Below are positions 1 to 49,386 of a stretch of 64,000 nt of DNA, one piece after another (the first letter of the stretch is position 1; every line of letters begins with the position of its first letter). The translations under genes and the position numbers were made by a program. The stretch is from Escherichia coli (GTDB lineage Bacteria > Pseudomonadota > Gammaproteobacteria > Enterobacterales > Enterobacteriaceae). The notes beneath the pieces were generated by a model, which saw nothing but the letters and a program-made list of their open reading frames with translations, was not told where the DNA came from and ran no database searches. The stretch is from NCBI RefSeq assembly GCF_003334355.1, contig NZ_QOWP01000014.1; one strand, written 5' to 3'.

Positions 1-1
1 C

Positions 2-223
2 TACCACGGTTTTTATGGTCGTACGGCCTTATTTGAAGTTCTGCCCATAACGCCGGTCATTCGTCAGCTTATTTCCGCTAATACCGACGTTGAATCGCTG
101 GAAACGCACGCACGACAGGCGGGTATGCGTACGCTTTTTGAAAACGGCTGCCTGGCCGTAGAGCAAGGCTTAACCACCTTTGAAGAGTTAATCCGCGTAC
201 TGGGGATGCCGCATGGCGAGTAA
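2..223 (+). CDS. hofB: Type IV pilus / T2SS-family assembly ATPase HofB (GspE-like), 3' end only
   Basis: Open frame from window edge ending at TAA 221-223; translation ...YHGFYGRTALFEVLPITPVIRQLISANTDVESLETHARQAGMRTLFENGCLAVEQGLTTFEELIRVLGMPHGE matches GspE-type C-terminus; overlaps hofC start by 11 nt. Confidence 0.85.
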   Translation, partial: YHGFYGRTALFEVLPITPVIRQLISANTDVESLETHARQAGMRTLFENGCLAVEQGLTTFEELIRVLGMPHGE

Positions 224-1415
224 GCAACTCTGGCGCTGGCATGGCATAACCGGCGACGGCAATGCGCAAGATGGGATGCTATGGGCAGAGAGCCGTACTT
301 TACTGCTTATGGCACTACAGCAACAGATGGTTACCCCACTAAGCCTGAAGCGAATCGCCATCAATTCTGCGCAGTGGCGAGGAGATAAAAGCGCGGAAGT
401 CATTCATCAACTGGCGACGCTACTCAAAGCAGGGTTAACGCTTTCTGAAGGGCTGGCTCTGCTGGCGGAACAGCATCCCAGTAAGCAATGGCAAGCGTTG
501 CTGCAATCGCTGGCGCACGATCTCGAACAGGGCATTGCTTTTTCCAATGCCTTATTACCCTGGTCAGAGGTATTTCCGCCGCTCTATCAGGCGATGATCC
601 GCACGGGTGAACTGACCGGTAAGCTGGATGAATGCTGCTTTGAACTGGCGCGTCAGCAAAAAGCCCAGCGTCAGTTGACCGACAAAGTGAAATCAGCGTT
701 ACGTTATCCCATCATCATTTTAGCGATGGCAATCATGGTGGTTGTGGCAATGCTGCATTTTGTTCTGCCGGAGTTTGCCGCTATCTATAAGACCTTCAAC
801 ACCCCACTACCGGCACTAACGCAGGGGATCATGACGCTGGCAGACTTTAGTGGCGAATGGAGCTGGCTGCTGGTGTTGTTCGGCTTTCTGCTGGCGATAG
901 CCAATAAGTTGCTGATGCGCCGACCGACCTGGCTTATAGTGCGGCAGAAATTGCTGTTACGCATCCCGATTATGGGTTCACTGATGCGGGGACAAAAACT
1001 CACGCAGATCTTTACGATTCTGGCGCTGACACAAAGTGCAGGCATTATTTTTTTACAGGGCGTAGAGAGCGTCAGAGAAACAATGCGCTGCCCGTACTGG
1101 GTGCAACTTCTGACACAAATCCAGCACGATATCAGTAACGGTCAACCCATCTGGCTGGCGCTAAAAAATACCGGTGAGTTTAGCCCGCTCTGTTTGCAAT
1201 TAGTGAGAACAGGAGAGGCATCCGGCTCTCTGGATCTCATGTTAGACAACCTCGCCCATCATCATCGGGAAAACACAATGGCGCTGGCGGATAACCTCGC
1301 AGCCTTACTGGAACCGGCGTTGCTGATCATAACGGGAGGAATTATTGGTACGCTGGTGGTGGCAATGTATCTGCCAATTTTCCATTTAGGCGATGCGATG
1401 AGTGGGATGGGATAA
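213..1415 (+). CDS. hofC: Type IV pilus / T2SS-family inner-membrane platform protein HofC (GspF-like)
   Basis: 400-aa ORF; GspF/PilC-like polytopic membrane protein; immediately follows hofB with overlapping start. Confidence 0.92.
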   Translation: MASKQLWRWHGITGDGNAQDGMLWAESRTLLLMALQQQMVTPLSLKRIAINSAQWRGDKSAEVIHQLATLLKAGLTLSEGLALLAEQHPSKQWQALLQSLAHDLEQGIAFSNALLPWSEVFPPLYQAMIRTGELTGKLDECCFELARQQKAQRQLTDKVKSALRYPIIILAMAIMVVVAMLHFVLPEFAAIYKTFNTPLPALTQGIMTLADFSGEWSWLLVLFGFLLAIANKLLMRRPTWLIVRQKLLLRIPIMGSLMRGQKLTQIFTILALTQSAGIIFLQGVESVRETMRCPYWVQLLTQIQHDISNGQPIWLALKNTGEFSPLCLQLVRTGEASGSLDLMLDNLAHHHRENTMALADNLAALLEPALLIITGGIIGTLVVAMYLPIFHLGDAMSGMG

Positions 1416-1442
1416 CGCTGGCGTGTTGCTCCACGCCAGCGT
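1414..1442. terminator. Perfect inverted repeat (acgctggcgtg / cacgccagcgt) between convergent hofC and guaC; probable bidirectional terminator
   Basis: 11-bp perfect stem with about 7-nt loop directly after hofC stop and 8 nt before guaC stop; no strong U-tract on either side. Confidence 0.5.
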
Positions 1443-1449
1443 TGGGAGA

Positions 1450-2493
1450 TTACAGGTTGTTGAAGATGCGGTTTTCTTGTTCCTGCACACGAATAAACGT
1501 GGTGCGCTTGGTCAGCTCTTTCAGGCGTGAAGCCCCAACGTATGTACAAGCTGAACGCAGGCCGCCCAAAATATCTCGCGCGGTATTTTCAACCGGGCCT
1601 CGCAGCGGCAGCTTAACGGTTTTACCTTCTGCTGCGCGATATTCCGCAACGCCGCCAACGTGACGTTTCATCGCAGACTCGGAGCTCATGCCGTAGAACA
1701 GCATAAATTTCTCGCCGTTCTCCTCAACGATGCGACCGCCGCTCTCTTCGTGGCCCGCCAGCATGCCGCCAAGCATGACGAAATCGGCACCGCCGCCAAA
1801 GGCTTTCGCCACATCGCCCGGCGTGGTGCAGCCACCATCGCTGACGATCATTCCGCCCAGACCGTGCGCAGCATCGGCACATTCGATTACCGCAGAAAGT
1901 TGCGGATAACCGACGCCTGTTTTGACGCGAGTTGTACAAACAGAACCTGGGCCAATGCCAACTTTAACGATATCAGCACCGGAGAGGATAAGCTCCTCAC
2001 ACATTTCACCAGTCACTACGTTACCAGCACAAATGGTTTTGGTCGGCCACGCTTCACGCGCTTTCGCAACGAACTGCACGAAGTGTTCGGAATAACCATT
2101 CGCCACGTCAATACAAACGAAGTTTAATGCCGGGTTCAGGTCGAGAATCTGTTTAGTTTTTTCGAAATCCGCATCAGACGTACCGGTAGAAACCATCACA
2201 TGTTTCAGCACATCAGCGGAAGAATTGTTGATAAACGCTTGCCACTCTTCGACAGAATAGTGTTTATGCACAGCAGTCAAAATATCAAAAGAAGCCAGCG
2301 CAGAGGCCATAGAAAATGTGCCTACGGTGTCCATATTTGCGGCGATAATCGGCACGCCGGACCAGCTCTGACCTGAATGTTTGAAGGTGAATTGACGTTC
2401 CAGTTCAACATCGGAACGGCTTTTAAGAGTGGAGCGTTTAGGGCGGATGAGAACGTCTTTAAAACCTAACTTCAGATCTTCTTCAATACGCAT
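1450..2493 (-). CDS. guaC: GMP reductase
   Basis: 347-aa ORF, full length for GuaC; IMPDH/GMPR fold motifs ([11 protein letters not shown], active-site Cys region). Confidence 0.96.
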
Positions 2494-2717
2494 GTGCGGA
2501 TTCCTGGGGTTAATGGCTATAAGGGTAAGAGCGCAACTCCAGTGACGCTATCATACGCACTAATCAATGCGGCGCAAGACTGCGAAATTGTCTTTTTTTA
2601 CGCTACAATCCCATAAATTTACCTGGTAAATAGTGAGCGAACGTTTCATCAATTTCGCTTTCGTGCACTCATTTTTAACGTTTTGATAATCATGATGAAT
2701 TCCCGGGAATATAAATT

Positions 2718-3338
2718 ATGAGGTATATAGTTGCCTTAACGGGAGGCATTGGCAGTGGCAAGAGTACCGTTGCCAATGCGTTTGCTGATCTCGGAATTAA
2801 CGTCATTGATGCCGATATTATTGCGCGTCAGGTGGTTGAACCAGGTGCACCTGCGCTACATGCCATTGCTGATCACTTTGGCGCTAACATGATTGCTGCT
2901 GATGGAACATTGCAGCGCCGGGCCTTGCGCGAGCGGATCTTCGCCAACCCGGAAGAGAAAAACTGGCTTAACGCCCTGCTGCATCCGCTGATTCAGCAAG
3001 AGACGCAACACCAGATCCAGCAAGCTACTTCCCCCTATGTACTGTGGGTTGTGCCATTGCTGGTAGAAAACTCACTGTATAAAAAAGCGAATCGAGTGCT
3101 GGTGGTGGATGTCAGCCCAGAAACGCAACTTAAGCGCACCATGCAGCGCGATGATGTAACTCGCGAGCATGTCGAACAAATCCTTGCTGCTCAGGCAACG
3201 CGCGAAGCCCGCCTTGCCGTGGCAGATGACGTCATTGATAATAACGGCGCACCGGATGCTATCGCATCGGATGTTGCCCGCCTGCACGCACACTATTTGC
3301 AGCTTGCGTCGCAGTTTGTCTCACAGGAAAAACCGTAA
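2718..3338 (+). CDS. coaE: Dephospho-CoA kinase
   Basis: 206-aa ORF; N-terminal P-loop [11 protein letters not shown]; stop overlaps zapD start (TAATG). Confidence 0.96.
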
Positions 3339-4081
3339 TGCAGACCCAGGTCCTTTTTGAACATCCACTAAATGAAAAAATGCGTACATGGCTGCGCATT
3401 GAGTTTTTGATTCAGCAACTCACCGTTAATTTACCCATCGTTGACCACGCTGGCGCGCTGCATTTCTTCCATAATGTCAGTGAATTACTGGATGTTTTCG
3501 AGCGCGGCGAAGTCCGCACTGAGCTGTTGAAAGAACTTGACCGGCAGCAACGTAAACTCCAGACCTGGATTGGCGTGCCTGGCGTGGACCAGAGCCGTAT
3601 TGAAGCATTAATTCAGCAGTTAAAAGCGGCGGGGAGCGTATTAATTTCCGCGCCGCGTATCGGGCAATTTCTGCGTGAAGATCGTTTGATTGCTCTGGTG
3701 CGTCAGCGACTGAGCATCCCAGGCGGCTGTTGCAGCTTTGATTTACCTACATTGCACATTTGGCTGCATCTACCCCAGGCGCAGCGCGACAGCCAGGTAG
3801 AAACCTGGATTGCCAGCCTGAACCCGCTCACCCAGGCACTTACCATGGTGCTGGATTTAATTCGCCAGTCGGCCCCCTTCCGTAAACAAACCAGCCTGAA
3901 TGGTTTTTATCAGGATAACGGTGGCGATGCCGACTTGCTGCGCCTGAATCTGTCGCTCGATTCACAGCTTTATCCGCAAATTTCCGGACATAAGAGCCGT
4001 TTTGCCATTCGTTTTATGCCGCTGGACACTGAAAACGGACAGGTACCGGAACGTCTGGATTTCGAACTGGCCTGTTGCTAA
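3338..4081 (+). CDS. zapD: Cell division factor ZapD (YacF)
   Basis: 247-aa ORF; position between coaE and yacG; length matches ZapD. Confidence 0.93.
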
Positions 4082-4090
4082 GGAGTAAAA

Positions 4091-4288
4091 ATGTCAGAAA
4101 CTATTACGGTGAATTGCCCAACCTGCGGGAAAACGGTGGTGTGGGGTGAAATCAGCCCGTTTCGGCCATTTTGCTCCAAACGTTGTCAGCTGATCGACCT
4201 CGGAGAATGGGCTGCTGAAGAAAAACGAATCCCCAGCAGTGGCGATCTTTCCGAAAGCGATGACTGGAGCGAAGAGCCAAAGCAGTGA
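4091..4288 (+). CDS. yacG: DNA gyrase inhibitor YacG (zinc-finger protein)
   Basis: 65-aa ORF with CPTCGK...CSKRC zinc-ribbon cysteines; RBS ggag 9 nt after zapD stop. Confidence 0.93.
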
Positions 4289-4295
4289 CATTTGT

Positions 4296-4512
4296 CTGAT
4301 GCCGCACGTAGGCCTGATAAGACGCGGGCAGCGTCGCATCAGGCATCTTGTGCAAATGTCGGATGCGGCGTGAACGCCTTATCTGACCTACAAAAACAAA
4401 TTTATCAATGAGTTATAAATCCCTGTAGGCCTGATAAGACGCGCCAGCGTCGCATCAGGCATCGTGTGCGAATGTCAGATGCGGCGAAAACGCCTTATCT
4501 GACATACACACG
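4296..4512. repeat. REP/BIME cluster (two REP-pair units) between convergent yacG and mutT
   Basis: Two copies of the motif ggcctgataagacgcg..cagcgtcgcatcaggc and two copies of gatgcggcg..aacgccttatctgac in inverted arrangement; classic enterobacterial REP palindromes. Confidence 0.9.
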
Positions 4513-4893
4513 CTTAAGCTTCGCAATTACCTGTTCATTGGCTGGCGGAAACTCATCGGCATTAAGACCGACCAGCGACATCCACTCACCGGGTTGCCCT
4601 TCTTTACCCCACGGCTCCCCTTCCCAGCGTTCGACCAGCCAAAACCACAGTGTTATATGCCTGTCCGGGAATTCATATTCCAGTTTTTCAAATAGCGAAA
4701 AATGTTGGGGGGTAATCCCGACTTCTTCCTGAAGTTCACGCACCACCGCCTGTTCCGGCGTTTCACCCATTTCAATTTTACCGCCGGGAAACTCCAGTTT
4801 ATTCGCCATGTGCGCATCTGCTGCGCGACGCGTTATAAAGATTTCATTGTTCTCGTTGCGAATAATACCTACCGCAATTTGCAGCTTTTTCAT
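4495..4893 (-). CDS. mutT: 8-oxo-dGTP diphosphatase (Nudix hydrolase) MutT
   Basis: 132-aa ORF; Nudix box GGKIEMGETPEQAVVRELQEEVGI; stop codon lies inside the distal REP unit. Confidence 0.95.
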   Translation of the reverse strand: MKKLQIAVGIIRNENNEIFITRRAADAHMANKLEFPGGKIEMGETPEQAVVRELQEEVGITPQHFSLFEKLEYEFPDRHITLWFWLVERWEGEPWGKEGQPGEWMSLVGLNADEFPPANEQVIAKLKRVYVR

Positions 4894-4904
4894 TGTCTTA
4901 AACC

Positions 4905-4935
4905 TATAAAAAAGGCGCAGAATCCTGCGCCTTTT
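4905..4935 (-). terminator. Hairpin with flanking A/T tracts between secA stop and mutT start (attenuator/terminator-like)
   Basis: ggcgcag-aatc-ctgcgcc stem-loop flanked by A-run on one side and T-run on the other; sits in the 59-bp secA-mutT spacer. Confidence 0.5.
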
Positions 4936-4952
4936 ACTTTAACAGTTAGCTT

Positions 4953-7658
4953 TTATTGCAGGCGGCCATGGCACTGCTTGTATTTTTTACCAGAACCGCA
5001 CGGGCAAGGATCGTTACGTCCTACTTTGCGCTCTCCAGTTTGCGCCGCCAGTGCAGCTGCGGCTGCAGAGTCGTCATCCTGATGGCTAAGCTGCTGCATT
5101 TGCGCTAAACGCTCGGCTTCCATACGACGCTGTTGTTCCAGCTCCTCAACCTCTTCAGGCATACGTACCTGGACTTTGCTCAACGTGCTGATAACTTCAT
5201 ATTTTAACGACTCCAGCATCGCTGCAAACATGGAGAACGATTCACGTTTGTATTCCTGCTTCGGATCTTTCTGTGCGTAGCCACGCAGGTGGATACCCTG
5301 ACGCAGATAGTCCATCGCTGCCAGGTGCTCTTTCCACAGGGAGTCAAGCGTTTGCAGCATGACGCCTTTCTCGAAGTGACGCATCATCTCAGCACCAACC
5401 ACTTCTTCTTTACGCTGATACACTTCGATGGACTGCGCCAGAATTCGCTCACGCAGCGTCTCTTCATGCAGTTCTGGTTCTTTATCCAGCCACTCGGCAA
5501 TTGGCAAATCGAGGTCGAAATCGTTCTTCAGACGTTCCTGCAGCCCCGGAATATCCCACATTTCTTCCAGCGACTGTGGTGGAATGTAGGCATCAATGGT
5601 CGCTTTGAACACATCTTCACGAATGCTGTTAATGGTTTCGCTCACATCGCTGACATCCAACAGTTCGTTACGCTGGGAGTAAATGGCGCGACGCTGATCG
5701 TTAGCCACGTCATCATATTCCAGCAGTTGCTTACGAATGTCGAAGTTACGGCTTTCAACTTTACGCTGGGCGTTGGCAATCGCTTTAGTCACCCACGGGT
5801 GTTCAATGGCTTCGCCTGGCTTCATACCCAGTTTACGCATCATGCCGGATACTCGGTCGGAAGCAAAAATACGCATCAGCGCATCTTCCATCGACAGGTA
5901 GAAACGGGAAGAACCAGCATCCCCCTGACGACCAGAACGACCGCGCAACTGGTTATCGATACGACGGGATTCGTGACGCTCGGTACCGATGATATGCAGG
6001 CCACCTGCTTCCAGTACCGCATCGTGACGTACCTGCCAGTCGGCTTTAATTTTTTCAATTTGCTCTGCGGTCGGATTTTCCAGCGCGGCAACTTCTGCCT
6101 GCCAGCTACCACCGAGCACAATATCTGTACCACGACCCGCCATATTGGTCGCGATAGTCACCGCAGCCGGATAACCTGCCTGAGCAACAATCGCCGCTTC
6201 GTTGGCGTGGAATTTGGCGTTCAGGACGTTGTGCTTAATACCGGCTTTGGTCAGTTCGTTTGACACCAGCTCCGATTTTTCGATGGAGATAGTACCCACC
6301 AGCACCGGCTGGCCTTTCGCAGTACGTTCTTTGATATCTTCAATGATCGCCTGAATTTTTTCCGCTTCAGTCATGTAGACCAGGTCCGGCAGATCTTTAC
6401 GAATCATTGGACGGTTGGTCGGAACAACGACGGTATCCAGCTTGTAGATTGAGCTAAATTCGAAAGCTTCGGTATCAGCAGTACCGGTCATCCCCGCCAG
6501 TTTTTCATACAGACGGAAGTAGTTCTGGAAGGTGATCGAAGCCAGCGTTTGGTTTTCGTTCTGGATCTGCACACCTTCTTTCGCTTCCACAGCCTGGTGC
6601 AGACCATCGGACCAGCGACGGCCCTGCATGGTACGACCGGTGTGTTCGTCAACGATGATAACTTCACCATCTTTAACGATGTAGTCGACGTCACGGGTAA
6701 ACAGCGCATGAGCGCGCAGCGCCGCCGTTACGTGGTGCATCAGCATGATGTTGGCCGGAGAGTACAGAGACTCCCCTTCATCCATGATGCCCTCTTTCAC
6801 CAGCAGTTCTTCAATCAGCACCAGACCACGTTCGGTCAGGTTCACCTGGCGAGATTTTTCGTCCACCGAGAAGTGGCCTTCGCCCTGGAAGGTTTCGGAG
6901 TCTTCTTTTTCCTGACGGATCAGGTGCGGAATAATTTTATTCACGCGTTTATACATTTCCGAGCTGTCTTCTGCCGGGCCGGAAATGATCAGCGGTGTAC
7001 GCGCTTCATCGATCAGGATGGAGTCCACTTCGTCCACCAGCGCATAGTGCAGTTTACGCTGTACACGTTCTTCAGGGCTGAACGCCATGTTGTCGCGCAG
7101 GTAGTCAAAGCCGTATTCGTTGTTCGTACCGTAAGTGATGTCAGCTGCGTAAGCTTCGCGCTTTGCCGGTGCTGGCATGCCCGGCAGGTTGATACCGACA
7201 GTCAGGCCAAGGAATTCAAACAGCGGACGGTTGTTTTCGGCGTCACGTTGCGCCAGGTAGTCGTTGACGGTAACTACGTGCACGCCTTTACCGGTTAGTG
7301 CGTTCAGGTAAGCAGGCAGCGTTGCGGTCAGGGTTTTACCTTCACCGGTACGCATTTCGGCGATGCAGCGTTCGTTAAGAACCATACCGCCGAGTAACTG
7401 AACGTCGAAGTGACGCATACCAAAGACGCGCTTACTTGCCTCACGTACCACGGCGAAAGCTTCCGGGATCAGATTTTCCAGCACTTCGCCTTTTTCCAGA
7501 CGTGCACGAAACTCTGCGGTTTTCCCTTTCAGTTCTTCGTCGGAGAGTTTTTCCATCTCCGGTTCCATGGCATTGATGATGTTGACCACTTTGCGCATCC
7601 GGCGCAGGGTGCGATCGTTACGACTACCGAAAACTTTAGTTAATAATTTGATTAGCAT
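4953..7658 (-). CDS. secA: Preprotein translocase ATPase SecA
   Basis: 901-aa ORF; DEAD-like motor motifs and C-terminal zinc-binding tail [14 protein letters not shown]. Confidence 0.98.
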
Positions 7659-9480: not shown

Positions 9481-10632
9481 TTAATCAGCTTGCTTACGCA
9501 GGAATGCTGGAATATCCAGATAATCCGGCTCTTTCGCAGTTTGCGGCGCATTGTCATTCACGACTTTAGCAATCGGCTTCTGCTCCTGGGTCAGCGGAGC
9601 CATCCCGTGCTGCTGGTAGCGATCCATCACTGGCTGCTGAACCTGCTTATTGGTCACCAGAGTGATTTCAGGACGTTTGTCCATGCCGATACCTGTCGCA
9701 ACAACAGTTACGCGCAGCTCGTCATTCATATCCGGGTCAAGAGAAGTACCGATAACCACGGTCGCGTTGTCGGAAGCAAATGCACGGATGGTGTTACCTA
9801 CCGTTTCGAACTCATCCAGACGCAGGTCGAAGCCCGCTGTGATGTTAACCAGCACGCCGCGTGCGCCAGACAGGTCGATATCTTCCAGCAGCGGAGAAGA
9901 GATAGCCATTTCAGCAGCTTCTTCCGCACGGTCTTCACCGCTCGCCACGCCAGAACCCATCATTGCGTAGCCCATTTCAGACATTACGGTGCGTACGTCT
10001 GCAAAGTCCACGTTCATCAAACCCGGACGAGTAATCAGTTCAGCGATACCTTGCACAGCGCCTTTCAGTACATCGTTCGCTGCGCCAAACGCATCCAGCA
10101 GGGAGATACCGCGGCCCAGAACTTTCAGCAGTTTGTCGTTCGGGATAGTGATCAGAGAGTCCACATGCTTGGACAGTTCAGTGATCCCCTGCTCCGCGAA
10201 TGCCATACGCTTCTTGCCTTCAAAGTTGAAAGGCTTAGTGACGACAGCAACGGTCAGGATACCCAAATCTTTTGCCACTTCAGCGACGACTGGTGCTGCA
10301 CCTGTACCGGTACCACCACCCATACCCGCAGCAATAAAGACCATGTCTGCACCTTCCAGCGCAGCACGCAATGCATCGCGATCCTCATCAGCCGCATTGC
10401 GGCCAACTTCTGGATTAGCGCCAGCGCCCAGTCCTTTGGTGATACCGCTACCGATTTGAATCGTCTGTCCAACCGCTGTTTTACGCAGCGCTTGTGCATC
10501 GGTATTTACCGCGAAGAATTCAACACCTTCAATGCGCTCACGCACCATGTGTTCAACAGCATTACCGCCGCCGCCGCCGACGCCGATGACTTTAATCACC
10601 GCGTCATTGGTAAGTTCCATTGGTTCAAACAT
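9481..10632 (-). CDS. ftsZ: Cell division GTPase FtsZ
   Basis: 383-aa ORF; tubulin signature GGGTGTG. Confidence 0.98.
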
Positions 10633-10692
10633 AGTTTCTCTCCGATTTGTGCCTGTCGCCTGAGGCCGTAATCATCGTCGGCCTCATAAAAA

Positions 10693-11955
10693 TTAAAACT
10701 CTTTTCGCAGCCAACTATTGAGTCGCTTGATCCACGAGCCAACTGATGCTGTAACACGTTTTTCTACTTCAGCTTCACCGTTAAGATGTGACTCTTTCCC
10801 ATAGTGAAGCAATCCCACCGCCGTCGAATAATACGGCTCCTGAGCATAATCCGTTAAACCGGTAATGTTCAGCGGCGCGCCGATACGCACTTGCGTATGA
10901 AACACGCGCTGAGCACAGGCTGCAAGACCTTCGATCTGCGCTGCGCCACCGGTTAATACAATGCCTGCCGCCAGGTGATGTTTAACCCCTTGTTGGCGAA
11001 GCTTTTCCTGCAACTGCAATATCTCTTCGTTGACCAGGTTGAGCAGCTCGGTATAGCGCGGCTCGATCACCTCTGCCAGGGTCTGACGTTGCAGACTCCG
11101 CGGCGGACGACCACCTACGCTCGGCACTTCCACGCTCTCATCTTTTCCAACGATGGAACCCAGCGCACAACCGTGGCGAACTTTAATCGCTTCGGCGTCG
11201 CTTGGCGGCGTGCCAAAGGCGTAAGCGATATCACTGGTCACGACATTGCCAGCATAAGGAATTACCTTAGTGTGGCGCAATGCCCCACCGGTATAAACGG
11301 CGATATCCATTGTACCACCACCGATATCGACGACGCAGACACCCAGTTCACGTTCATCTTCCGTCAATACCGAATAACTTGATGCCAGTCCGGCAAATAT
11401 CAGTTGGTCAACTTTCAGCCCACAACGTTCAACCGCTTTGACGATGTTTTTCGCCATATCGTTGTGACATGTGATCAGGTGCACTTTTGCCTGCATCCGC
11501 ACGCCCGAAAGTCCTACCGGATTCTTGATCCCTTCCTGATAGTCAATCGCATACTCTTGCGGGATCACATGCAGCACACGATGCTCATCGCGCACACGCA
11601 CCGATTTCGCGGTGTGGACGACGTTTTCCACATCTTCTTGCGTTACTTCTTCTTCAGAAATAGGCACCATACCAATTTCATTCTGGCAGCTGATGTGCTT
11701 ACCAGAAAGCGCCAGATATACCGAAGAGATCTGACAATCTGCCATCAATTCTGCCTGGTCAATGGCGCGTTGTACGCACTTGACCACGGATTCGAGGTCG
11801 TTCACCCCGCCTTTATCCATACCACGCGACGGGCAGCTGCCCACGCCAATGATATTGACCATACCGTCGGGCAGAACTTCCCCTACTAAAGCGGCAACCT
11901 TCGCGGTACCAATCTCCAGTCCTACTACCAGTTTTCTGTCCGTCGCCTTGATCAT
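10693..11955 (-). CDS. ftsA: Cell division protein FtsA (actin-like ATPase)
   Basis: 420-aa ORF; actin/Hsp70 fold motifs; 4-nt overlap with ftsQ. Confidence 0.98.
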
Positions 11956-31624: not shown

Positions 31625-32060
31625 AATCCTCGAGAATATGATTTATCATGCATATAAAATAAGAAAAAGGAAAATGAGTAAAATTAGGAAAACATAAAGA
31701 TACGGGTTCTGATAAAAACAGAATCCATTGCCGTGGAATGAGTCATTTACCACAGCATAATAATCCATAATGTTTTTGTTGCGAAAACAATCTAATCATA
31801 ACTACCGCGAATACTCAATCATCTACAAAATGGATTAAATGTGCTTATTTAATAATTAATTTATATATTTAATGCATTAATTCTTAACATTAATTGATCA
31901 ATAATATTCACCAAATCAATATCAAAAAAAATCGCAAAACATATAATTCAATACAAATCATCAGGATAGGTTTTGCAACGCGTGCATTTTGTCCCCTTTT
32001 TCCTCGTTGATTAGATGCAAAAATTTATGCTGAAATATGTCAACCGATGAAAAGCGTCGG
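31625..32060. promoter_or_regulatory. Strongly AT-rich leuO-leuL intergenic island (H-NS-type silencing / promoter-relay region)
   Basis: About 430 bp of very AT-rich sequence with A/T tracts (aataattaatttatatatttaatgcattaattcttaacattaattgatcaataatatt); lies between divergent leuO and leuL. Confidence 0.6.
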
Positions 32061-32228
32061 TAGTTAAGCAGAAATTAATATCGCTTACTTTAACCACCGC
32101 AGCACAATTAGCTAATTTTACGGATGCAGAACTCACGCTGGCGGGACGTTTTTATTGCGTCAGGGTTGACATCCGTTTTTGTATCCAGTAACTCTAAAAG
32201 CATATCGCATTCATCTGGAGCTGATTTA

Positions 32229-32315
32229 ATGACTCACATCGTTCGCTTTATCGGTCTACTACTACTAAACGCATCTTCTTTGCGCGGTAGACGAGTGAGC
32301 GGCATCCAGCATTAA
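32229..32315 (+). CDS. leuL: leu operon leader peptide
   Basis: 28-codon [31 protein letters not shown] with four consecutive CUA Leu codons; followed by attenuator hairpin. Confidence 0.9.
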
Positions 32316-32338
32316 GCCAGCACGCAGTCAAACAAAAA

Positions 32339-32365
32339 ACCCGCGCCATTGCGCGGGTTTTTTTA
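32339..32365 (+). terminator. leu attenuator (intrinsic terminator)
   Basis: acccgcgc-catt-gcgcgggt stem-loop followed by 7 T, 24 nt after leuL stop and 43 nt before leuA. Confidence 0.9.
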
Positions 32366-32407
32366 TGCCCGAAGCGAGGCGCTCTAAAAGAGACAAGGAC
32401 CCAAACC

Positions 32408-35070
<2,663 letters not shown>

Positions 35071-35072
35071 TC

Positions 35073-37089
<2,017 letters not shown>

Positions 37090-37096
37090 TCCCCTT

Positions 37097-37119
37097 GCCC
37101 GGTCAAATGACCGGGCTTT
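37097..37119 (+). terminator. leu operon terminator hairpin, shared with convergent setA
   Basis: gcccggtc-aaat-gaccgggc followed by ttt, 8 nt after leuD stop. Confidence 0.7.
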
Positions 37120-37137
37120 CCGCTATCGTCCACGTCA

Positions 37138-38316
37138 TCAAATGTCTTTAACCTTTGCGGTTAAAAATAATGCGACAACAGAAATAACCGCAATTATCCA
37201 GTAGACAGCAAAGTGCCCCCAACTTTGTGCAATTGCTCCCTGAATAACGCCAGCCAGAATTACCCCGGTAGAAATACTGTTAGTAAATAAGGTGGTAGCT
37301 GCCCCCGCTCTTCCAGGCATTAAATCCTGAAACCATAGCATCCCAATACCCGCAACAATGCCGATAAATACAGCGTTAAAAAGTTGCAGCGTCATCAACG
37401 CCAGACGGCTATGAAATAAAATCAATCCGGTGTAAAACAGTACTCCTGCCGCCACTGCTATGACCATCATTCGCCGCTTACCATAACGTTTGACATAGTA
37501 GCCAGCCAGAATCATTGCTGGTATTTCCAGTCCAGCTGCCGTCCCCATCAGGAAACCCGCCAGTTTGTCTGGCAATCCTAACTCGCTACTGATCCACAAC
37601 GGCATATCAATAATGTACATGGTGTTGCAGGTCCACATTAACGTCGAGGCGACAAATAACATCCGTACGTTACTATCCTGCCAGCCACCTTGCATTGATA
37701 AAGCATTTTCCGACGGCAGTTCTACCCGCGCCACAGACGGAAGCATAAATGCAATCAATACCAGACTGAGTGTGAATATCCCGGCGGCAATCGAAAACAT
37801 CACCGTAAAGCCGTAATTCAACGCCAGCATAAAGGCCAACGGTGGACCGATAACCCATGCCAGAGAAAGCTGCGCACGCATCACCGAGCTAAACATCACC
37901 ACTTCTCGCGCCGAGTTATCCGCATATTCCCGCGCCAGAGCAAATAACTGTGGCATTGCCGTATTGGCCAGAGATGCCAGAAGCACACCACAGGTGATAA
38001 GCGTCAGATAATGACGATTAAATGCAAACAATAGCGCATTGCCGATAGCCATCAAACAGCAAAATATAATCAGTTTTCGCCGATCGCCCTGACTGTCAGA
38101 ACGTTTTGCCAACCAGAGGCTTACGCCGATCCCAGCAATAGCATTCACCGTATAAAAGAGTCCGATCCAGAAAGGTTGCGCGCCAACCTCACGACTCAGA
38201 AATAAGCTCAATGTAGGAGCCTGTAGCGCCCCGGCCACCCCCATCATAAAAGCGACCAGCATAAATGCCGCGTAAACACCGTTCATACGGCGAGCCATCG
38301 TCATTATCCAGATCAT
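37138..38316 (-). CDS. setA: Sugar efflux transporter SetA (MFS)
   Basis: 392-aa ORF; 12-TM MFS-like hydrophobic profile; position between leuD and sgrS. Confidence 0.93.
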   Translation of the reverse strand: MIWIMTMARRMNGVYAAFMLVAFMMGVAGALQAPTLSLFLSREVGAQPFWIGLFYTVNAIAGIGVSLWLAKRSDSQGDRRKLIIFCCLMAIGNALLFAFNRHYLTLITCGVLLASLANTAMPQLFALAREYADNSAREVVMFSSVMRAQLSLAWVIGPPLAFMLALNYGFTVMFSIAAGIFTLSLVLIAFMLPSVARVELPSENALSMQGGWQDSNVRMLFVASTLMWTCNTMYIIDMPLWISSELGLPDKLAGFLMGTAAGLEIPAMILAGYYVKRYGKRRMMVIAVAAGVLFYTGLILFHSRLALMTLQLFNAVFIGIVAGIGMLWFQDLMPGRAGAATTLFTNSISTGVILAGVIQGAIAQSWGHFAVYWIIAVISVVALFLTAKVKDI

Positions 38317-38343
38317 ACGTTCCCTTTTTAGCGCGGCGAGAAT

Positions 38344-38570
38344 AAAAAAAACCAGCAGGTATAATCTGCTGGCGGGTGATTTTACACCAATACTCAGTCA
38401 CACATGATGCAGGCAAGTCAACTTTCAGAATTGCGGTCATCCCACTGCATCAGTCCTTCAAGCATGGTTAATCGTTGTGGGACGCTTAACCAACGCAACC
38501 AGCACAACTTCGCTGTCGCGGTAAAATAGTGCTGATAAAACTGACGCATGGGGCACCTCCTTGCTTCATC
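38344..38570 (-). ncRNA. sgrS: Dual-function small RNA SgrS (glucose-phosphate stress)
   Basis: Reverse strand shows the SgrS 3' region ...gcatcatgtgtgactgagtattggtgtaaaatcacccgccagcagattatacctgctggtttttttt (ptsG-pairing segment plus terminator); contains sgrT ORF; divergent from sgrR; 5' end approximate. Confidence 0.88.
38418..38549 (-). CDS. sgrT: Small protein SgrT (glucose transport inhibitor) encoded within SgrS
   Basis: 43-codon ORF MRQFYQHYFTATAKLCWLRWLSVPQRLTMLEGLMQWDDRNSES inside the sgrS transcript. Confidence 0.85.
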   Translation of the reverse strand: MRQFYQHYFTATAKLCWLRWLSVPQRLTMLEGLMQWDDRNSES

Positions 38571-38637
38571 GTTAGGAATTATTGACTTAATATAGGGAAA
38601 ATAAAATTGCTGTCTTTTGCGCAGGAGTTCCCCTTTT

Positions 38638-40293
38638 ATGCCATCTGCTCGTCTGCAACAACAGTTCATCCGCCTGTGGCAATGCTGCGAGGGTAAATCG
38701 CAGGACACAACGCTCAACGAACTGGCAGCGTTATTGAGCTGCTCGCGTCGTCATATGCGTACCCTGCTCAACACCATGCAGGATCGCGGCTGGCTGACGT
38801 GGGAAGCGGAAGTCGGGCGCGGTAAACGCTCGCGTCTGACATTCCTCTATACCGGGCTGGCGCTTCAGCAACAGCGGGCGGAAGACCTGCTGGAGCAGGA
38901 TCGTATCGACCAACTAGTACAGTTGGTTGGCGACAAAGCGACTGTGCGGCAAATGCTGGTTTCTCATCTGGGCCGCAGCTTCCGCCAGGGGCGGCACATC
39001 CTGCGCGTGCTCTACTATCGTCCGTTGCGTAATCTGCTACCTGGCAGCGCATTGCGCCGTTCCGAAACCCATATTGCCCGGCAAATCTTCAGTTCGCTAA
39101 CGCGCATAAATGAGGAAAATGGGGAACTGGAAGCAGACATCGCCCACCACTGGCAGCAAATATCACCGCTTCACTGGCGTTTCTTTTTGCGTCCAGGAGT
39201 CCATTTTCATCATGGTCGTGAACTGGAAATGGACGACGTGATCGCCTCTTTAAAACGAATCAATACGCTGCCGCTCTATTCGCATATTGCTGACATTGTG
39301 TCGCCGACGCCCTGGACGCTGGATATCCATCTCACGCAACCGGACCGCTGGTTACCGTTATTGCTGGGGCAAGTTCCGGCGATGATCCTGCCGCGCGAAT
39401 GGGAAACCCTCAGTAACTTTGCCAGCCATCCCATCGGCACCGGTCCGTATGCGGTGATCCGCAACAGCACCAATCAACTGAAAATTCAGGCATTCGATGA
39501 CTTCTTCGGTTACCGGGCATTAATCGACGAAGTTAACGTCTGGGTTCTGCCGGAAATTGCCGACGAGCCAGCCGGAGGTCTGATGCTAAAAGGTCCACAG
39601 GGCGAGGAAAAAGAGATTGAAAGCCGCCTGGAGGAAGGTTGCTACTATTTACTATTCGACAGCCGCACCCATCGCGGGGCGAATCAGCAAGTCAGGGACT
39701 GGGTAAGCTATGTGCTTTCTCCAACTAATCTGGTCTATTTCGCTGAGGAACAGTACCAGCAACTGTGGTTCCCGGCTTATGGACTGCTCCCCCGTTGGCA
39801 CCATGCCCGCACCATAAAGAGCGAAAAACCGGCTGGTCTGGAAAGCCTCACCCTAACCTTTTATCAGGATCACAGTGAGCATCGGGTGATTGCCGGGATC
39901 ATGCAGCAGATTCTGGCAAGTCACCAGGTCACGCTGGAAATCAAAGAGATCGACTACGATCAGTGGCATACAGGAGAGATCGAAAGTGATATCTGGCTAA
40001 ACAGCGCCAACTTTACCCTGCCGCTGGACTTCTCTGTTTTCGCACATTTATGCGAAGTGCCACTGCTACAACATTGCATTCCCATTGACTGGCAAGCCGA
40101 CGCTGCTCGCTGGCGCAATGGCGAGATGAATCTGGCGAACTGGTGCCAGCAACTGGTCGCCAGCAAAGCGATGGTGCCATTATTGCACCACTGGCTGATC
40201 ATTCAGGGGCAACGCAGTATGCGCGGCCTGCGCATGAACACCCTCGGCTGGTTCGATTTTAAATCAGCGTGGTTTGCGCCACCGGATCCATGA
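38638..40293 (+). CDS. sgrR: Transcriptional regulator SgrR (HTH + solute-binding-protein-like domain)
   Basis: 551 aa from internal ATG ([15 protein letters not shown]...); track ORF has 7 extra N-terminal codons. Confidence 0.94.
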
Positions 40294-40321
40294 TTGCTGG
40301 TTGATAACAAAATCACTACAC

Positions 40322-40420
40322 TAACGCCGTTCTCAACGGGGTGCCACGCAAACGCGTGCGCTGAGAAAATACCCGTCGAACCTGATCCGGATAACGCCGG
40401 CGAAGGGATTTGAGGCTCCT
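40322..40420 (+). promoter_or_regulatory. sroA: TPP riboswitch (THI element; sroA) in thiBPQ leader
   Basis: Conserved THI-box core ggggtgcc...gctgagaaaatacccgtcgaacctgatccggataacgccggcgaagggatttg about 40 nt upstream of thiB start. Confidence 0.88.
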
Positions 40421-40456
40421 TCTCAAGTCCTTTGCCACTCTTTTTTGAGGTGCAAA

Positions 40457-41440
40457 GTGTTAAAAAAATGTCTGCCCCTGCTGTTGCTGTGCACAGCGCC
40501 CGTTTTCGCTAAACCCGTTCTGACTGTTTATACCTACGATTCCTTCGCCGCCGACTGGGGGCCTGGTCCGGTGGTTAAAAAAGCCTTTGAAGCCGACTGT
40601 AATTGCGAACTGAAACTGGTGGCGCTGGAAGATGGCGTTTCGCTTCTCAACCGTCTACGGATGGAAGGCAAAAACAGCAAAGCCGATGTAGTTCTGGGGC
40701 TGGATAACAACCTGTTAGACGCCGCCAGTAAAACCGGACTGTTTGCCAAAAGCGGCGTGGCAGCGGATGCCATTAACGTTCCCGGCGGCTGGAATAATGA
40801 CACTTTCGTACCGTTTGATTACGGCTACTTCGCCTTCGTCTACGACAAGAACAAACTGAAAAACCCGCCCCAAAGCCTGAAAGAGCTGGTTGAGAGCGAT
40901 CAAAACTGGCGAGTGATTTATCAGGATCCGCGCACCAGTACGCCGGGGCTGGGTCTGCTGTTGTGGATGCAAAAAGTCTATGGCGATGACACCCCGCAGG
41001 CCTGGCAGAAACTGGCGAAGAAAACTGTCACCGTCACCAAAGGCTGGAGCGAAGCCTACGGCCTGTTTTTAAAAGGTGAAAGCGATCTGGTACTGAGTTA
41101 CACCACCTCTCCGGCTTATCACATTCTCGAAGAGAAAAAAGATAACTACGCCGCCGCGAACTTTAGCGAAGGTCACTATCTGCAGGTGGAAGTCGCCGCC
41201 CGCACCGCTGCCAGCAAGCAGCCGGAGCTGGCGCAAAAATTTCTCCAGTTTATGGTTTCTCCGGCTTTCCAGAATGCGATCCCAACCGGCAACTGGATGT
41301 ATCCGGTGGCAAATGTCACGCTGCCTGCCGGGTTTGAACAATTGACCAAACCAGCAACCACGCTGGAGTTCACGCCAGCCGAAGTGGCGGCACAACGTCA
41401 GGCATGGATTAGCGAATGGCAACGCGCCGTCAGCCGTTAA
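40457..41440 (+). CDS. thiB: Thiamine ABC transporter periplasmic binding protein
   Basis: 327 aa from GTG (MLKKCLPLLLLCTAPVFA signal peptide); track ORF starts 4 codons earlier at TTG; exact start uncertain. Confidence 0.92.
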   Translation: MLKKCLPLLLLCTAPVFAKPVLTVYTYDSFAADWGPGPVVKKAFEADCNCELKLVALEDGVSLLNRLRMEGKNSKADVVLGLDNNLLDAASKTGLFAKSGVAADAINVPGGWNNDTFVPFDYGYFAFVYDKNKLKNPPQSLKELVESDQNWRVIYQDPRTSTPGLGLLLWMQKVYGDDTPQAWQKLAKKTVTVTKGWSEAYGLFLKGESDLVLSYTTSPAYHILEEKKDNYAAANFSEGHYLQVEVAARTAASKQPELAQKFLQFMVSPAFQNAIPTGNWMYPVANVTLPAGFEQLTKPATTLEFTPAEVAAQRQAWISEWQRAVSR

Positions 41441-43026
41441 TTCCCGGCTGGTTAATTCCAGGTGTAAGCGCCGCCACGCTGGTGGTAGCGGTTGCGCTCG
41501 CGGCGTTTCTCGCCCTGTGGTGGAACGCGCCGCAGGGTAACTGGGTGGCAATCTGGCAGGACAGCTACCTGTGGCATGTGGTGCGCTTCTCCTTCTGGCA
41601 GGCGTTTCTCTCGGCGCTGCTCTCTGTCGTACCCGCGATATTCCTCGCCCGCGCACTCTATCGCAGGCGCTTTCCGGGTCGGCTGGCGCTGTTGCGTCTG
41701 TGCGCAATGACCTTGATCCTCCCGGTGCTGGTTGCTGTTTTCGGCATTCTTAGCGTCTATGGTCGTCAGGGCTGGCTGGCATCGCTCTGCCAATCGCTCG
41801 GTCTGGAGTGGACCTTTTCGCCCTACGGCCTGCAAGGTATTTTGCTGGCGCACGTATTTTTTAATCTACCGATGGCGAGCCGCTTATTACTCCAGGCACT
41901 GGAAAACATTCCCGGCGAGCAACGTCAGCTTGCCGCCCAGCTTGGGATGCGCGGCTGGCATTTTTTCCGCTTCATCGAATGGCCGTGGCTACGGCGACAA
42001 ATCCCGCCGGTTGCCGCGCTTATCTTTATGCTCTGTTTCGCCAGCTTCGCCACCGTGCTGTCGCTGGGCGGCGGTCCGCAGGCAACCACTATCGAGCTGG
42101 CAATCTATCAGGCGCTGAGTTACGACTACGATCCTGCCCGCGCGGCGATGCTGGCGCTGATCCAGATGGTGTGTTGCCTCGGGTTGGTGCTGCTGAGTCA
42201 GCGATTGAGTAAGGCCATTGCGCCAGGCACCACGCTGCTGCAAGGCTGGCGCGACCCGGACGATCGTCTGCATAGCCGCATTTGCGACACGGTGTTAATT
42301 GTGCTGGCGCTGCTGCTGTTGCTGCCACCGTTGCTGGCGGTGATCGTCGATGGGCTAAATCGCCAGTTGCCGGAAGTGCTGGCACAACCGGTGCTGTGGC
42401 AGGCGCTGTGGACCTCGTTGCGTATTGCGCTGGCGGCAGGTGTATTGTGCGTAGTGCTGACCATGATGCTGCTATGGAGCAGTCGCGAACTTCGGGCGCG
42501 GCAGAAAATGCTGGCGGGTCAGGCGCTGGAGATGAGCGGCATGTTGATTCTCGCCATGCCGGGGATTGTGCTGGCTACCGGCTTCTTTTTACTGCTCAAC
42601 AACACCATTGGCCTGCCGCAATCTGCTGACGGCATTGTGATTTTCACCAATGCGTTAATGGCGATCCCTTATGCGCTGAAAGTACTGGAAAACCCGATGC
42701 GCGATATCACCGCCCGCTACAGTATGTTGTGTCAGTCGCTGGGCATTGAAGGCTGGTCGCGCTTAAAAGTGGTCGAGCTGCGCGCCCTGAAACGTCCACT
42801 GGCGCAGGCGCTGGCTTTTGCCTGCGTGCTGTCGATTGGTGATTTTGGCGTAGTGGCGTTGTTCGGTAACGATGATTTCCGTACCCTGCCGTTTTATCTC
42901 TACCAGCAAATTGGCTCCTATCGCAGCCAGGACGGTGCGGTCACCGCGTTAATTCTGCTACTACTCTGTTTTCTGCTGTTTACCGTGATTGAAAAACTAC
43001 CGGGGCGAAATGTTAAAACTGACTGA
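41416..43026 (+). CDS. thiP: Thiamine ABC transporter permease
   Basis: 536-aa ORF; duplicated ABC permease domains; 25-nt overlap with thiB. Confidence 0.95.
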
Positions 43027-43708
43027 TATCACCTGGCTTTATCACCATTTGCCGATGCGTTTTAGCTTAACGGTAGAACGCGGCGAGCAGGTGGCAATCC
43101 TCGGGCCAAGCGGCGCGGGTAAAAGTACCCTGCTGAATTTGATCGCCGGTTTTCTGACGCCAGCCAGCGGTTCGCTGACTATCGACGGCGTTGATCACAC
43201 CACGACGCCGCCGTCACGCCGTCCGGTGTCGATGCTGTTTCAGGAAAACAACCTGTTCAGTCACCTGACGGTCGCGCAGAACATCGGGCTGGGGCTAAAT
43301 CCGGGATTGAAACTGAACGCGGCACAGCAGGAGAAAATGCACGCTATCGCCCGCCAGATGGGGATTGATAATTTAATGGCGCGGTTACCTGGCGAGCTTT
43401 CCGGCGGTCAGCGACAGCGAGTGGCGTTAGCACGTTGTCTGGTACGCGAACAGCCGATTTTATTGCTCGATGAACCGTTCTCTGCGCTCGATCCGGCACT
43501 ACGCCAGGAGATGTTGACGCTGGTGAGCACGAGCTGCCAGCAGCAAAAAATGACGTTATTGATGGTGTCACACAGTGTGGAAGATGCCGCGCGGATCGCC
43601 ACGCGCTCGGTGGTGGTCGCCGACGGGCGCATCGCCTGGCAGGGTAAGACCAATGAGTTGTTGAGCGGTAAGGCGAGTGCTTCAGCACTATTGGGGATTA
43701 CGGGTTAG
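43010..43708 (+). CDS. thiQ: Thiamine ABC transporter ATP-binding protein
   Basis: 232 aa from internal ATG ([13 protein letters not shown]...); Walker [13 protein letters not shown] signature LSGGQRQR, Walker B LLLDEP. Confidence 0.95.
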
Positions 43709-43714
43709 TATGCA

Positions 43715-43802
<88 letters not shown>

Positions 43803-43821
43803 ACCCGCACAAGACAATCCC

Positions 43822-44586
43822 CTAAACCCCAACCACTTTACGCAAAATATCGATATACACCGGCATCAACGGGTGGCGAATTAACACCACCAGCGCCACC
43901 ACGCCGATGGCAGAAATCAACGGCGTCAGCCACAACAAACGGCCGCGCGACAAATAATGACTTAAACGATCGGTTGCTTTACCGCTGCGCCATAACCGCC
44001 AGCACAGCCAGCCACCAACCCACAAAAATACCGCCGTCGCCAGCAGCAACCATTTAAACTCGCCGCTCTGCATTCCGGCTGGAATATCGATCGCCGCGCC
44101 CGCCAGAATCCCAGGCAGGAAGTAAAACGGTGGCCACAGCAGGCAGCCGATAATATTCGGCGTAATGAATTTTGCCACCGGCAGATCCAGCATTCCCGCC
44201 ACCATTGGCACCAGCGGACGCGTCGGGCCAACAAAGCGACCGACCAGAATGGTGAACATGCTGTGTTGATGCAACGCATGTTCAGTTTTATCGAGTAATG
44301 CTTTGTTTTTCTTCAGAAATGACCAGCGATGCAACGGCTTTTTAAAACGCCAGCCCAGCCAGAAGGAGATCCAGTCGCCCAGCAGACAACCGACAATCCC
44401 TGCCAGCCAGGCGTGCCAGAAACTTAACTCGCCGCTGCCAATCAGCGCTCCCAGCCCCGCCATCAGCACCGTACCGGGTAGAATCAAACCGACCAGCGCC
44501 AGCGACTCCAGAAAGGCCACCAACACCACCGCCATCAATGAATACACGGTAGATTGGGTAATAAAGTGTTCCAGCAATGCTTGCAT
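43822..44586 (-). CDS. yabI: DedA-family inner membrane protein YabI
   Basis: 254-aa ORF; multi-TM DedA/SNARE-associated family; downstream of araC. Confidence 0.92.
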   Translation of the reverse strand: MQALLEHFITQSTVYSLMAVVLVAFLESLALVGLILPGTVLMAGLGALIGSGELSFWHAWLAGIVGCLLGDWISFWLGWRFKKPLHRWSFLKKNKALLDKTEHALHQHSMFTILVGRFVGPTRPLVPMVAGMLDLPVAKFITPNIIGCLLWPPFYFLPGILAGAAIDIPAGMQSGEFKWLLLATAVFLWVGGWLCWRLWRSGKATDRLSHYLSRGRLLWLTPLISAIGVVALVVLIRHPLMPVYIDILRKVVGV

Positions 44587-44671
44587 AATGTGCCTGTCAA
44601 ATGGACGAAGCAGGGATTCTGCAAACCCTATGCTACTCCGTCAAGCCGTCAATTGTCTGATTCGTTACCAA

Positions 44672-45550
44672 TTATGACAACTTGACGGCTACATCATTCA
44701 CTTTTTCTTCACAACCGGCACGGAACTCGCTCGGGCTGGCCCCGGTGCATTTTTTAAATACCCGCGAGAAATAGAGTTGATCGTCAAAACCAACATTGCG
44801 ACCGACGGTGGCGATAGGCATCCGGGTGGTGCTCAAAAGCAGCTTCGCCTGGCTGATACGTTGGTCCTCGCGCCAGCTTAAGACGCTAATCCCTAACTGC
44901 TGGCGGAAAAGATGTGACAGACGCGACGGCGACAAGCAAACATGCTGTGCGACGCTGGCGATATCAAAATTGCTGTCTGCCAGGTGATCGCTGATGTACT
45001 GACAAGCCTCGCGTACCCGATTATCCATCGGTGGATGGAGCGACTCGTTAATCGCTTCCATGCGCCGCAGTAACAATTGCTCAAGCAGATTTATCGCCAG
45101 CAGCTCCGAATAGCGCCCTTCCCCTTGCCCGGCGTTAATGATTTGCCCAAACAGGTCGCTGAAATGCGGCTGGTGCGCTTCATCCGGGCGAAAGAACCCC
45201 GTATTGGCAAATATTGACGGCCAGTTAAGCCATTCATGCCAGTAGGCGCGCGGACGAAAGTAAACCCACTGGTGATACCATTCGCGAGCCTCCGGATGAC
45301 GACCGTAGTGATGAATCTCTCCTGGCGGGAACAGCAAAATATCACCCGGTCGGCAAACAAATTCTCGTCCCTGATTTTTCACCACCCCCTGACCGCGAAT
45401 GGTGAGATTGAGAATATAACCTTTCATTCCCAGCGGTCGGTCGATAAAAAAATCGAGATAACCGTTGGCCTCAATCGGCGTTAAACCCGCCACCAGATGG
45501 GCATTAAACGAGTATCCCGGCAGCAGGGGATCATTTTGCGCTTCAGCCAT
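44672..45550 (-). CDS. araC: Arabinose operon regulator AraC
   Basis: 292 aa from internal ATG ([35 protein letters not shown]...); AraC/XylS C-terminal HTH; track ORF has 17-codon upstream extension. Confidence 0.97.
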
Positions 45551-47589
<2,039 letters not shown>

Positions 47590-47599
47590 GGACACGATA

Positions 47600-49102: not shown

Positions 49103-49105
49103 GTA

Positions 49106-49375: not shown

Positions 49376-49386
49376 AAGGAGTCAAC

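Follow-up and report, generated by a model that had tools for sequence, protein, structure and literature searches.

Distal hofB-hofC genes of the ppdD pilus operon and the hairpin at their junction with guaC in Escherichia coli

Genes and features at the hofB-hofC-guaC locus

At the start of a 64,000-nucleotide stretch of the Escherichia coli contig NZ_QOWP01000014.1 (assembly GCF_003334355.1; the whole stretch is referred to as the window) lie the 3' end of hofB, the complete hofC gene and, converging on hofC across a 34-nt spacer, the gene guaC. The same genes are given by the RefSeq annotation of this stretch, which lists gspE (hofB), hofC and guaC. Reading frame 2 has no stop between the window edge and a TAA at 221-223 and encodes 73 residues, and the spacer between hofC and guaC holds a palindromic hairpin (Table 1). 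Taken jointly, the analyses described below leave us highly confident that the ppdD-hofB-hofC operon on the chromosome of a K-12-like E. coli has its distal end at positions 1-1415, that HofB and HofC have roles in pilus assembly, and that the hairpin is a 3' structure of the guaC mRNA.

Table 1 Features at and around the hofB-hofC end of the window. dN/dS is the ratio of nonsynonymous to synonymous substitution rates, computed pairwise by the Nei-Gojobori method among five diverse E. coli lineages.
Feature	Position	Strand	dN/dS	Remarks
hofB, 3' end	2..223	+	0.081	last 73 codons and TAA; GspE/PilB-type assembly ATPase; RefSeq label gspE/hofB
GGGGA, likely Shine-Dalgarno sequence of hofC	202..206	+		6 nt before the ATG, within the hofB coding sequence; putative function
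hofB/hofC overlap, 11 nt (ATGGCGAGTAA)	213..223	+		architecture expected for translational coupling
hofC	213..1415	+	0.156	ATG at 213, TAA at 1413-1415; intact, 400 aa; PilC/GspF-type inner-membrane platform
guaC read-through region antisense to hofC	812..912	-		primers for quantitative reverse-transcription PCR of 10.1101/2020.04.19.049098 map to 812-830 and 893-912
Putative rut-like Rho loading region	1300..1410	-		C-rich, G-poor stretch in guaC sense, just downstream of the hairpin; putative rut assignment
Steady-state 3' end of guaC mRNA	1411..1411	-		Term-seq; 3 nt beyond the stem base at 1414
Palindromic hairpin	1414..1443	both		perfect 12-bp stem, 6-nt loop, by folding of both strands; 5' arm AACGCTGGCGTG 1414-1425, loop 1426-1431, 3' arm CACGCCAGCGTT 1432-1443
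guaC (GMP reductase)	1450..2493	-	0.022	347-aa open reading frame; RefSeq annotation guaC; convergent on hofC
ppdD			0.235	very few changes
coaE			0.090	

Comparison with K-12 MG1655 showed that 1499 of the first 1500 bases are identical, the sole difference being a C-to-T change at window position 1048, which results in a T279I substitution in HofC. HofC is accordingly 399/400 identical to its K-12 counterpart, and residue 279 falls in a variable column that is occupied by T, S, P, A, N or I across Enterobacteriaceae; a check for disruptive mutations in HofC, proposed by an earlier annotation made from the letters alone (the first-pass annotation), thus came back with none. The first 1500 bases recur in 5425 of the 5426 complete E. 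coli genomes, with 100% identity in 11, and this occurrence together with the near-perfect match to K-12 means that the locus is not a product of chance. In K-12, hofC (b0106) and hofB (b0107) belong to the ppdD-hofBC operon (termed hcpABC in enterohaemorrhagic E. coli, EHEC), with the same order nadC-ppdD-hofB-hofC converging on guaC. Apart from the one substitution, the window does not differ from this arrangement, its 11-nt overlap and hairpin being identical to those of K-12. The locus is therefore already known, carries essentially the K-12 allele of hofB-hofC, and shows no departure from published descriptions. Among the 5430 places matching the stretch 1-1500, three are on plasmid-labelled records, and a single complete E. 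coli genome is entirely without it.

In order to look beyond the window edge, we used a genome that is identical to the window over 1500 bases, in which the hofB gene occupies positions 3838-5223 of the locus sequence and ppdD lies 9 nt upstream of it. The encoded PpdD scored 269 bits against the model NF007862 (cut-off 138). The pilin gene was likewise found upstream of hofB in K-12, O157:H7, O145, O169 and a B2-like commensal, with nadC preceding ppdD, and in these six E. coli genomes ppdD, hofB and hofC share one orientation with junctions of 9 nt and -11 nt. The nadC-ppdD spacer was nearly invariant in five E. coli. Membership of both genes in the ppdD-hofBC operon, which the first-pass annotation had assumed and had suggested to verify by a pilin gene upstream, was hence confirmed by a directly adjoining ppdD in the identical genome, in K-12 and in four other lineages.

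The overlap of hofB and hofC had been put at 11 nt before, and this value proved exact. Five diverse E. coli share it unchanged. Of 19 loci from further Enterobacteriaceae genera, all with hofB and hofC adjacent, 17 retain the 11-nt form ATGnnnnnTAA, and the remaining two have overlaps of 8 and 14 nt. At the position equivalent to the GGGGA motif, most of the other genera are G-rich as well (tgggg, tgggc or tgggt). Judging from the conserved overlap and its architecture, translation of hofC is probably coupled to that of hofB.

HofB and HofC as pilus assembly proteins

With the HofC equivalog model NF007861 (cut-off 401), HofC reached 657.7 bits over residues 1-399 of 400, and it contains two T2SSF (PF00482) domains at residues 64-186 (E 4e-30) and 269-388 (E 1e-23). 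Among structures in the PDB, it matched PilC of M. xanthus (3jc8, E 3e-44). Kyte-Doolittle peaks at about residues 165-187, 216-234 and 366-390, which come from a simple hydropathy scan and not from a topology predictor, correspond to the three hydrophobic segments expected of PilC/GspF proteins, and a weaker, amphipathic peak (263-284) lies inside the second domain. The hofB fragment in the window aligned with positions 393-464 of the 465-position HofB/GspE model NF007755, that is, with its C-terminus, and its 95.5 bits necessarily lie under a cut-off set for the whole protein. Full-length HofB (461 aa), taken from a genome 100% identical to the window, reached 823 bits with the same model (cut-off 617) and carries the Pfam T2SSE domain (E 1e-146); this is a match of the whole-domain hidden Markov model, the Walker A/B motifs and the Asp and His boxes being located upstream of the window edge. 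Both gene identities proposed by the first-pass annotation were therefore right.

This pair resembles PilB-PilC of type IVa pilus machines (M. xanthus PilC, 3jc8/3jc9; Thermus PilC, 2whn), where the same two-domain T2SSF platform with three transmembrane segments is found and where a T2SSE ATPase is likewise encoded immediately upstream of the platform gene. The likeness has limits: HofC scored 198-208 bits against the PilC equivalogs, well under their cut-off of 700, and, compared with PilB, about 100 N-terminal residues are missing from HofB, so that its match to TIGR02538 begins at model position 160 and its MshEN domain is weak and partial (residues 8-69). In addition, the gene that follows hofC is guaC and not pilD.

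A homologous ATPase and platform pair, GspE-GspF, also operates in type II secretion systems, and it might be argued that HofB and HofC serve such a system rather than a pilus, given that PGAP names the ATPase 'type II secretion system protein GspE' and that HofC and HofB match the GspF model TIGR02120 (262 bits) and the GspE model TIGR02533 (458 bits), respectively. However, both scores stay under the curated cut-offs (424 and 630), and the PilB model gave HofB a higher score (486 bits) than the GspE model did. Moreover, the genes adjoin a co-oriented type IV pilin gene, ppdD, instead of the gspC-M genes of a gsp cluster, and the product that has been demonstrated is PpdD pili (10.1101/856302, 10.1101/2021.04.14.439816, PMC2649431). 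A function in type II secretion is thus extremely unlikely and was rejected on the equivalog scores below cut-off and the linkage to a pilin gene. Because HofB and HofC fall under the type II secretion cut-offs and HofB scores higher on PilB, the RefSeq name 'GspE' is a family label and not a functional assignment; for hofB, which encodes a pilus ATPase, it is misleading.

Published work agrees with a pilus role and with the poor laboratory expression that had been attributed to the operon (PMC1635313, PMC3330819, PMC2649431). The operon is nearly silent in LB. One CRP-S site upstream of ppdD was described together with a CRP bandshift, and Sxy induced the ppdD-hofB transcript 90-fold in a strictly CRP- and cAMP-dependent manner (PMC1635313); the amplicon used for this measurement lay within hofB, which means that transcription continues from ppdD into that gene. 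Upon Sxy induction, processed PpdD and low-level, hofQ-dependent DNA uptake were observed, while PpdD was made in ordinary culture by none of 72 ECOR strains (PMC3330819). PpdD pili are assembled by EHEC, and K-12 made to express ppdD-hofBC carries PpdD on its surface (PMC2649431). Furthermore, plasmid systems containing hofB (ATPase), hofC (platform), hofMNOPQ, minor pilins and a peptidase assemble PpdD filaments (10.1101/856302; 10.1101/2021.04.14.439816). The promoter of the operon is located outside the window, and a consensus promoter scan of positions 1-3000 returned no promoter-like site. Inspection by eye of positions 3186-3387 upstream of ppdD, in the genome identical to the window, yielded two CRP-S candidates, TTCGTAACGCCTCGCAA and TTTCGCTGCAACGAAA, neither of which we assigned.

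As the published work shows, cAMP-CRP and Sxy/TfoX jointly switch on the operon at its CRP-S promoter, which lies upstream of ppdD. In the mechanism that we propose, HofB would act as a hexameric assembly ATPase of the PilB/GspE type, and HofC as a platform with three transmembrane segments that takes up the movement of the ATPase and passes PpdD out of the inner membrane to the type IVa pilus as it grows, with the remaining machine (hofMNOPQ, ppdAB-ygdB-ppdC and a prepilin peptidase) encoded elsewhere. The first-pass annotation had called the natural role of these genes unclear. This was overstated, as Sxy/CRP-S induction, PpdD pili of EHEC and reconstituted assembly with hofB and hofC have already been published, and the natural role is substantially addressed in print as type IVa pilus assembly and Sxy-regulated DNA uptake. 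Since the genes, the operon, its Sxy/CRP-S control and the role in the PpdD type IVa pilus had all been described, the locus matters little beyond its correct annotation.

To what extent the genes are maintained was examined within and between species. All open reading frames were intact in the five E. coli lineages used for the dN/dS estimates of Table 1. For the comparison across species, one genome per species was scanned with a DNA pattern from the C-terminal part of guaC, which returned 120 loci. In 26 of these hofC converges on guaC, all of them in Enterobacteriaceae with GuaC at least 89% identical, and hofC was absent from 72 loci of Vibrio, Shewanella and others that had enough downstream sequence. 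Each of the 19 loci of other genera holding the whole gene encodes an intact HofC of 394-402 aa. In sequence, HofC diverges quickly: E. albertii has 92% identity, Citrobacter 69-76%, Enterobacter 55-62%, and Mangrovibacter, Shimwellia and Siccibacter 43-49%.

These data bear on the view that hofB and hofC are decaying relics, that is, dead 'cryptic' genes that persist only through chance or because essential neighbours are linked to them. Such decay would fit the lack of detectable PpdD in all 72 ECOR strains in laboratory culture, the fact that natural transformation has never been observed (PMC3330819), the much faster evolution of HofC than of GuaC between genera, and at least one natural isolate with a Mu-like prophage inside hofC. 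Yet every sampled E. coli and each of the 19 full-length loci of other genera has intact reading frames, dN/dS values of 0.08 (hofB) and 0.16 (hofC) are far under 1, the region is close to universal in complete E. coli genomes, as given above, and the 11-nt overlap was kept despite a protein divergence of 25-57%. Functional data point the same way, with processed pilin and hofQ-dependent DNA uptake after Sxy induction (PMC3330819) and pili reconstituted from these very genes (10.1101/856302, 10.1101/2021.04.14.439816). Decay is accordingly most improbable, and a pseudogene status was rejected in view of the intact reading frames and low dN/dS. Purifying selection acts on hofB and hofC, which are conserved, selected genes and not relics.

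The isolate with the interrupted gene is E. coli strain 2018-166 (NZ_CP075632.1, locus 3213-4133 onward), in which a Mu-like prophage carrying genes for a Com-family regulator, DUF826 and DUF1378 cuts hofC after nucleotide 921. This strain is a rare natural hofC knockout, and loss of the platform gene is tolerated at least occasionally.

The spacer hairpin and the 3' end of the guaC mRNA

The hairpin in the hofC-guaC spacer, most of which lies just outside the range 1-1415 considered by the first-pass annotation, begins with its first arm within the hofC stop codon. Folding gave -24.4 kcal/mol in hofC sense (z -3.6) and -23.9 kcal/mol in guaC sense (z -5.9) relative to shuffled controls. No U-tract was present on either side: the stem is followed by TTGGGAGATT in hofC sense and by TTATCCCATC in guaC sense; the tails read UUGGGAGAUU and UUAUCCCAUC, respectively. 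A consensus terminator scan of positions 1-3000 did not call the hairpin, which has no T-run. The five terminator-like matches that this region did contain were all within coding sequence, were no more than in shuffled sequence, and were discarded.

A hairpin occupies this spacer in all 26 enterobacterial loci, mostly with the core GCTGGCGC/GCGCCAGC; in Shimwellia, Mangrovibacter, Siccibacter and Kosakonia an unrelated stem sequence is found at the same place. RNAalifold returned an 8-bp consensus stem with compensatory changes at 5 pairs. As the MAFFT/RNAalifold alignment misaligned the four genera with a replaced stem, these pair counts understate the conservation, and the folds of the individual sequences are the better evidence. 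Two enterobacterial genomes, one of them Citrobacter youngae, have spacers grown to 107 and 187 nt, with long palindromes of -43 to -102 kcal/mol (GCCTGATAAG..., CCGGATGCGGCG...) occupying the position of the simple hairpin, and these palindromes look like REP/BIME-type insertions. In genomes of O157:H7, O145 and O169:H41, the 3' arm carries a G1435A change, which results in a C.A mismatch in the hofC-sense RNA and a G.U wobble in the guaC-sense RNA. At a single site, this difference hints at guaC as the main client of the hairpin and would be compatible with selection mainly for guaC.

Mapped RNA ends are available for the guaC side. By Term-seq, the primary 3' end of guaC lies at K-12 114526(+) (PMC7815308 supplementary file 1), whose flanking sequence is identical to that of the window and maps it to position 1411 on the minus strand. 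Bicyclomycin-sensitive termination by Rho was assigned to a region at K-12 114530 (Rho score 4.78, p 5.6e-12; PMC7815308 supplementary file 2), and, according to an independent study, RNA 538-638 nt beyond guaC is a validated Rho target that rises sharply in a temperature-sensitive rho strain (bioRxiv 10.1101/2020.04.19.049098). In line with Rho loading downstream of the hairpin, the guaC-sense C/G ratio is 1.6-2.2 over window positions 1420-1300 (80-nt windows).

Stable stem-loops without a U-tract were described by Dar and Sorek as a class of exonuclease-trimmed ends, with Rho terminating further downstream (PMC6061677). The hairpin shares with these 3' stem-loops its stability, the missing U-tract and a precise 3' end just after the stem, and at guaC bicyclomycin-sensitive read-through and a downstream excess of C over G are found as in that class. 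It differs in that the palindrome here also ends a convergent, normally silent operon, its first arm overlapping the hofC stop codon. By analogy, the guaC-sense hairpin is best described as the 3' stem-loop of a Rho-dependent transcript, with the blocking of exonucleases predicted by the Dar and Sorek model. It would thus form the exonuclease-resistant end of the guaC mRNA, and the Term-seq, bicyclomycin and temperature-sensitive rho data show that Rho terminates this transcript further downstream, in the antisense of hofC. On the hofC mRNA, the hairpin would most likely have the same stabilising role or act as a weak terminator.

An alternative, implied by the first-pass annotation, is true intrinsic (Rho-independent) termination in both directions, with the hairpin ending the hofC and the guaC transcripts alike. 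It is a perfect, GC-rich 12-bp palindrome of equal stability on either strand, lies exactly between the stop codons of two convergent genes and is kept in every enterobacterial spacer examined; the Siccibacter equivalent, preceded by an A-run and followed by a T-rich tail, even resembles a classic two-way terminator. Set against this are the U-tracts missing on both sides and the failure of the consensus scan to call it, the location of the guaC 3' end within the Rho termination region (PMC7815308), and the strong rise of RNA far past guaC upon Rho inactivation (10.1101/2020.04.19.049098). Because the 3'-end and Rho data identify the hairpin as the processed terminus of a guaC mRNA that Rho terminates and whose read-through covers the 3' part of hofC in antisense, bidirectional intrinsic termination is unlikely, and the hairpin should not be annotated in this way. 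The first-pass annotation, according to which the operon 'hairpin-terminates convergently' with guaC, was consequently correct as to a real and conserved hairpin, but the structure is without a U-tract and termination in guaC direction is Rho-dependent and takes place downstream.

The convergent hofC/guaC arrangement is conserved across Enterobacteriaceae and could itself be regulatory, in that Rho-limited read-through from guaC would dampen hofBC by transcriptional interference or antisense pairing in a purine-linked manner. We regard this as very doubtful. If true, the output of the pilus and DNA-uptake machinery would be tied to purine status, which would echo the purine repression of competence in Haemophilus. 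The pairing difference caused by G1435A says nothing direct about regulation.

Several points weigh against our joint reading of the locus as the end of a pilus operon that abuts a guaC 3' structure. On the RNA side, the hairpin could add some Rho-independent pausing or termination, mixed mechanisms being allowed by Dar and Sorek (PMC6061677), and on the hofC side the operon is silent under the published Term-seq conditions. With regard to the proteins, the functions of hofB and hofC were assigned by homology and multi-gene reconstitution and not gene by gene, and translational coupling was deduced from architecture alone. Finally, HofC diverges fast between genera, with 43-76% identity where GuaC has 89-94%, and its dN/dS is about sevenfold that of guaC, which indicates a weaker constraint than on the housekeeping neighbours.

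Other features of the window

Further into the window, positions 1-49936 run colinear with the reverse strand of K-12 MG1655 66065-116000 and differ from it by 381 mismatches but by no indel. These mismatches form a mosaic, with 0-18 per 2 kb over positions 1-32000 (hofC, the dcw cluster, cra, and ilvIH into leuO) and 17-69 per 2 kb over 32001-50000 (the leu, sgrR, thi and ara side), which suggests a recombination boundary near 32 kb.

An Rfam scan of the whole window found no RNA family within positions 1-1500. Four matches to naRNA4 (REP/BIME-type repeats) were located at 4311-4504, 49262-49327 and 56273-56351, two of them in tandem in the spacer between yacG and mutT. The model PssrA ('plasmid-encoded Shigella sRNA A'; 105 bits) matched at 10624-10713 (-) in the chromosomal ftsA-ftsZ spacer and STnc40 (85 bits) at 4908-4977 (-) in the secA-mutT spacer, each in sense orientation to the flanking genes. 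In the divergent guaC-coaE spacer, RefSeq places YacM, a small protein of 14 codons (2649-2693, minus strand). The five non-K-12 E. coli genomes inspected all contain it in identical form (WP_120795372.1), and it is annotated in K-12 as well.

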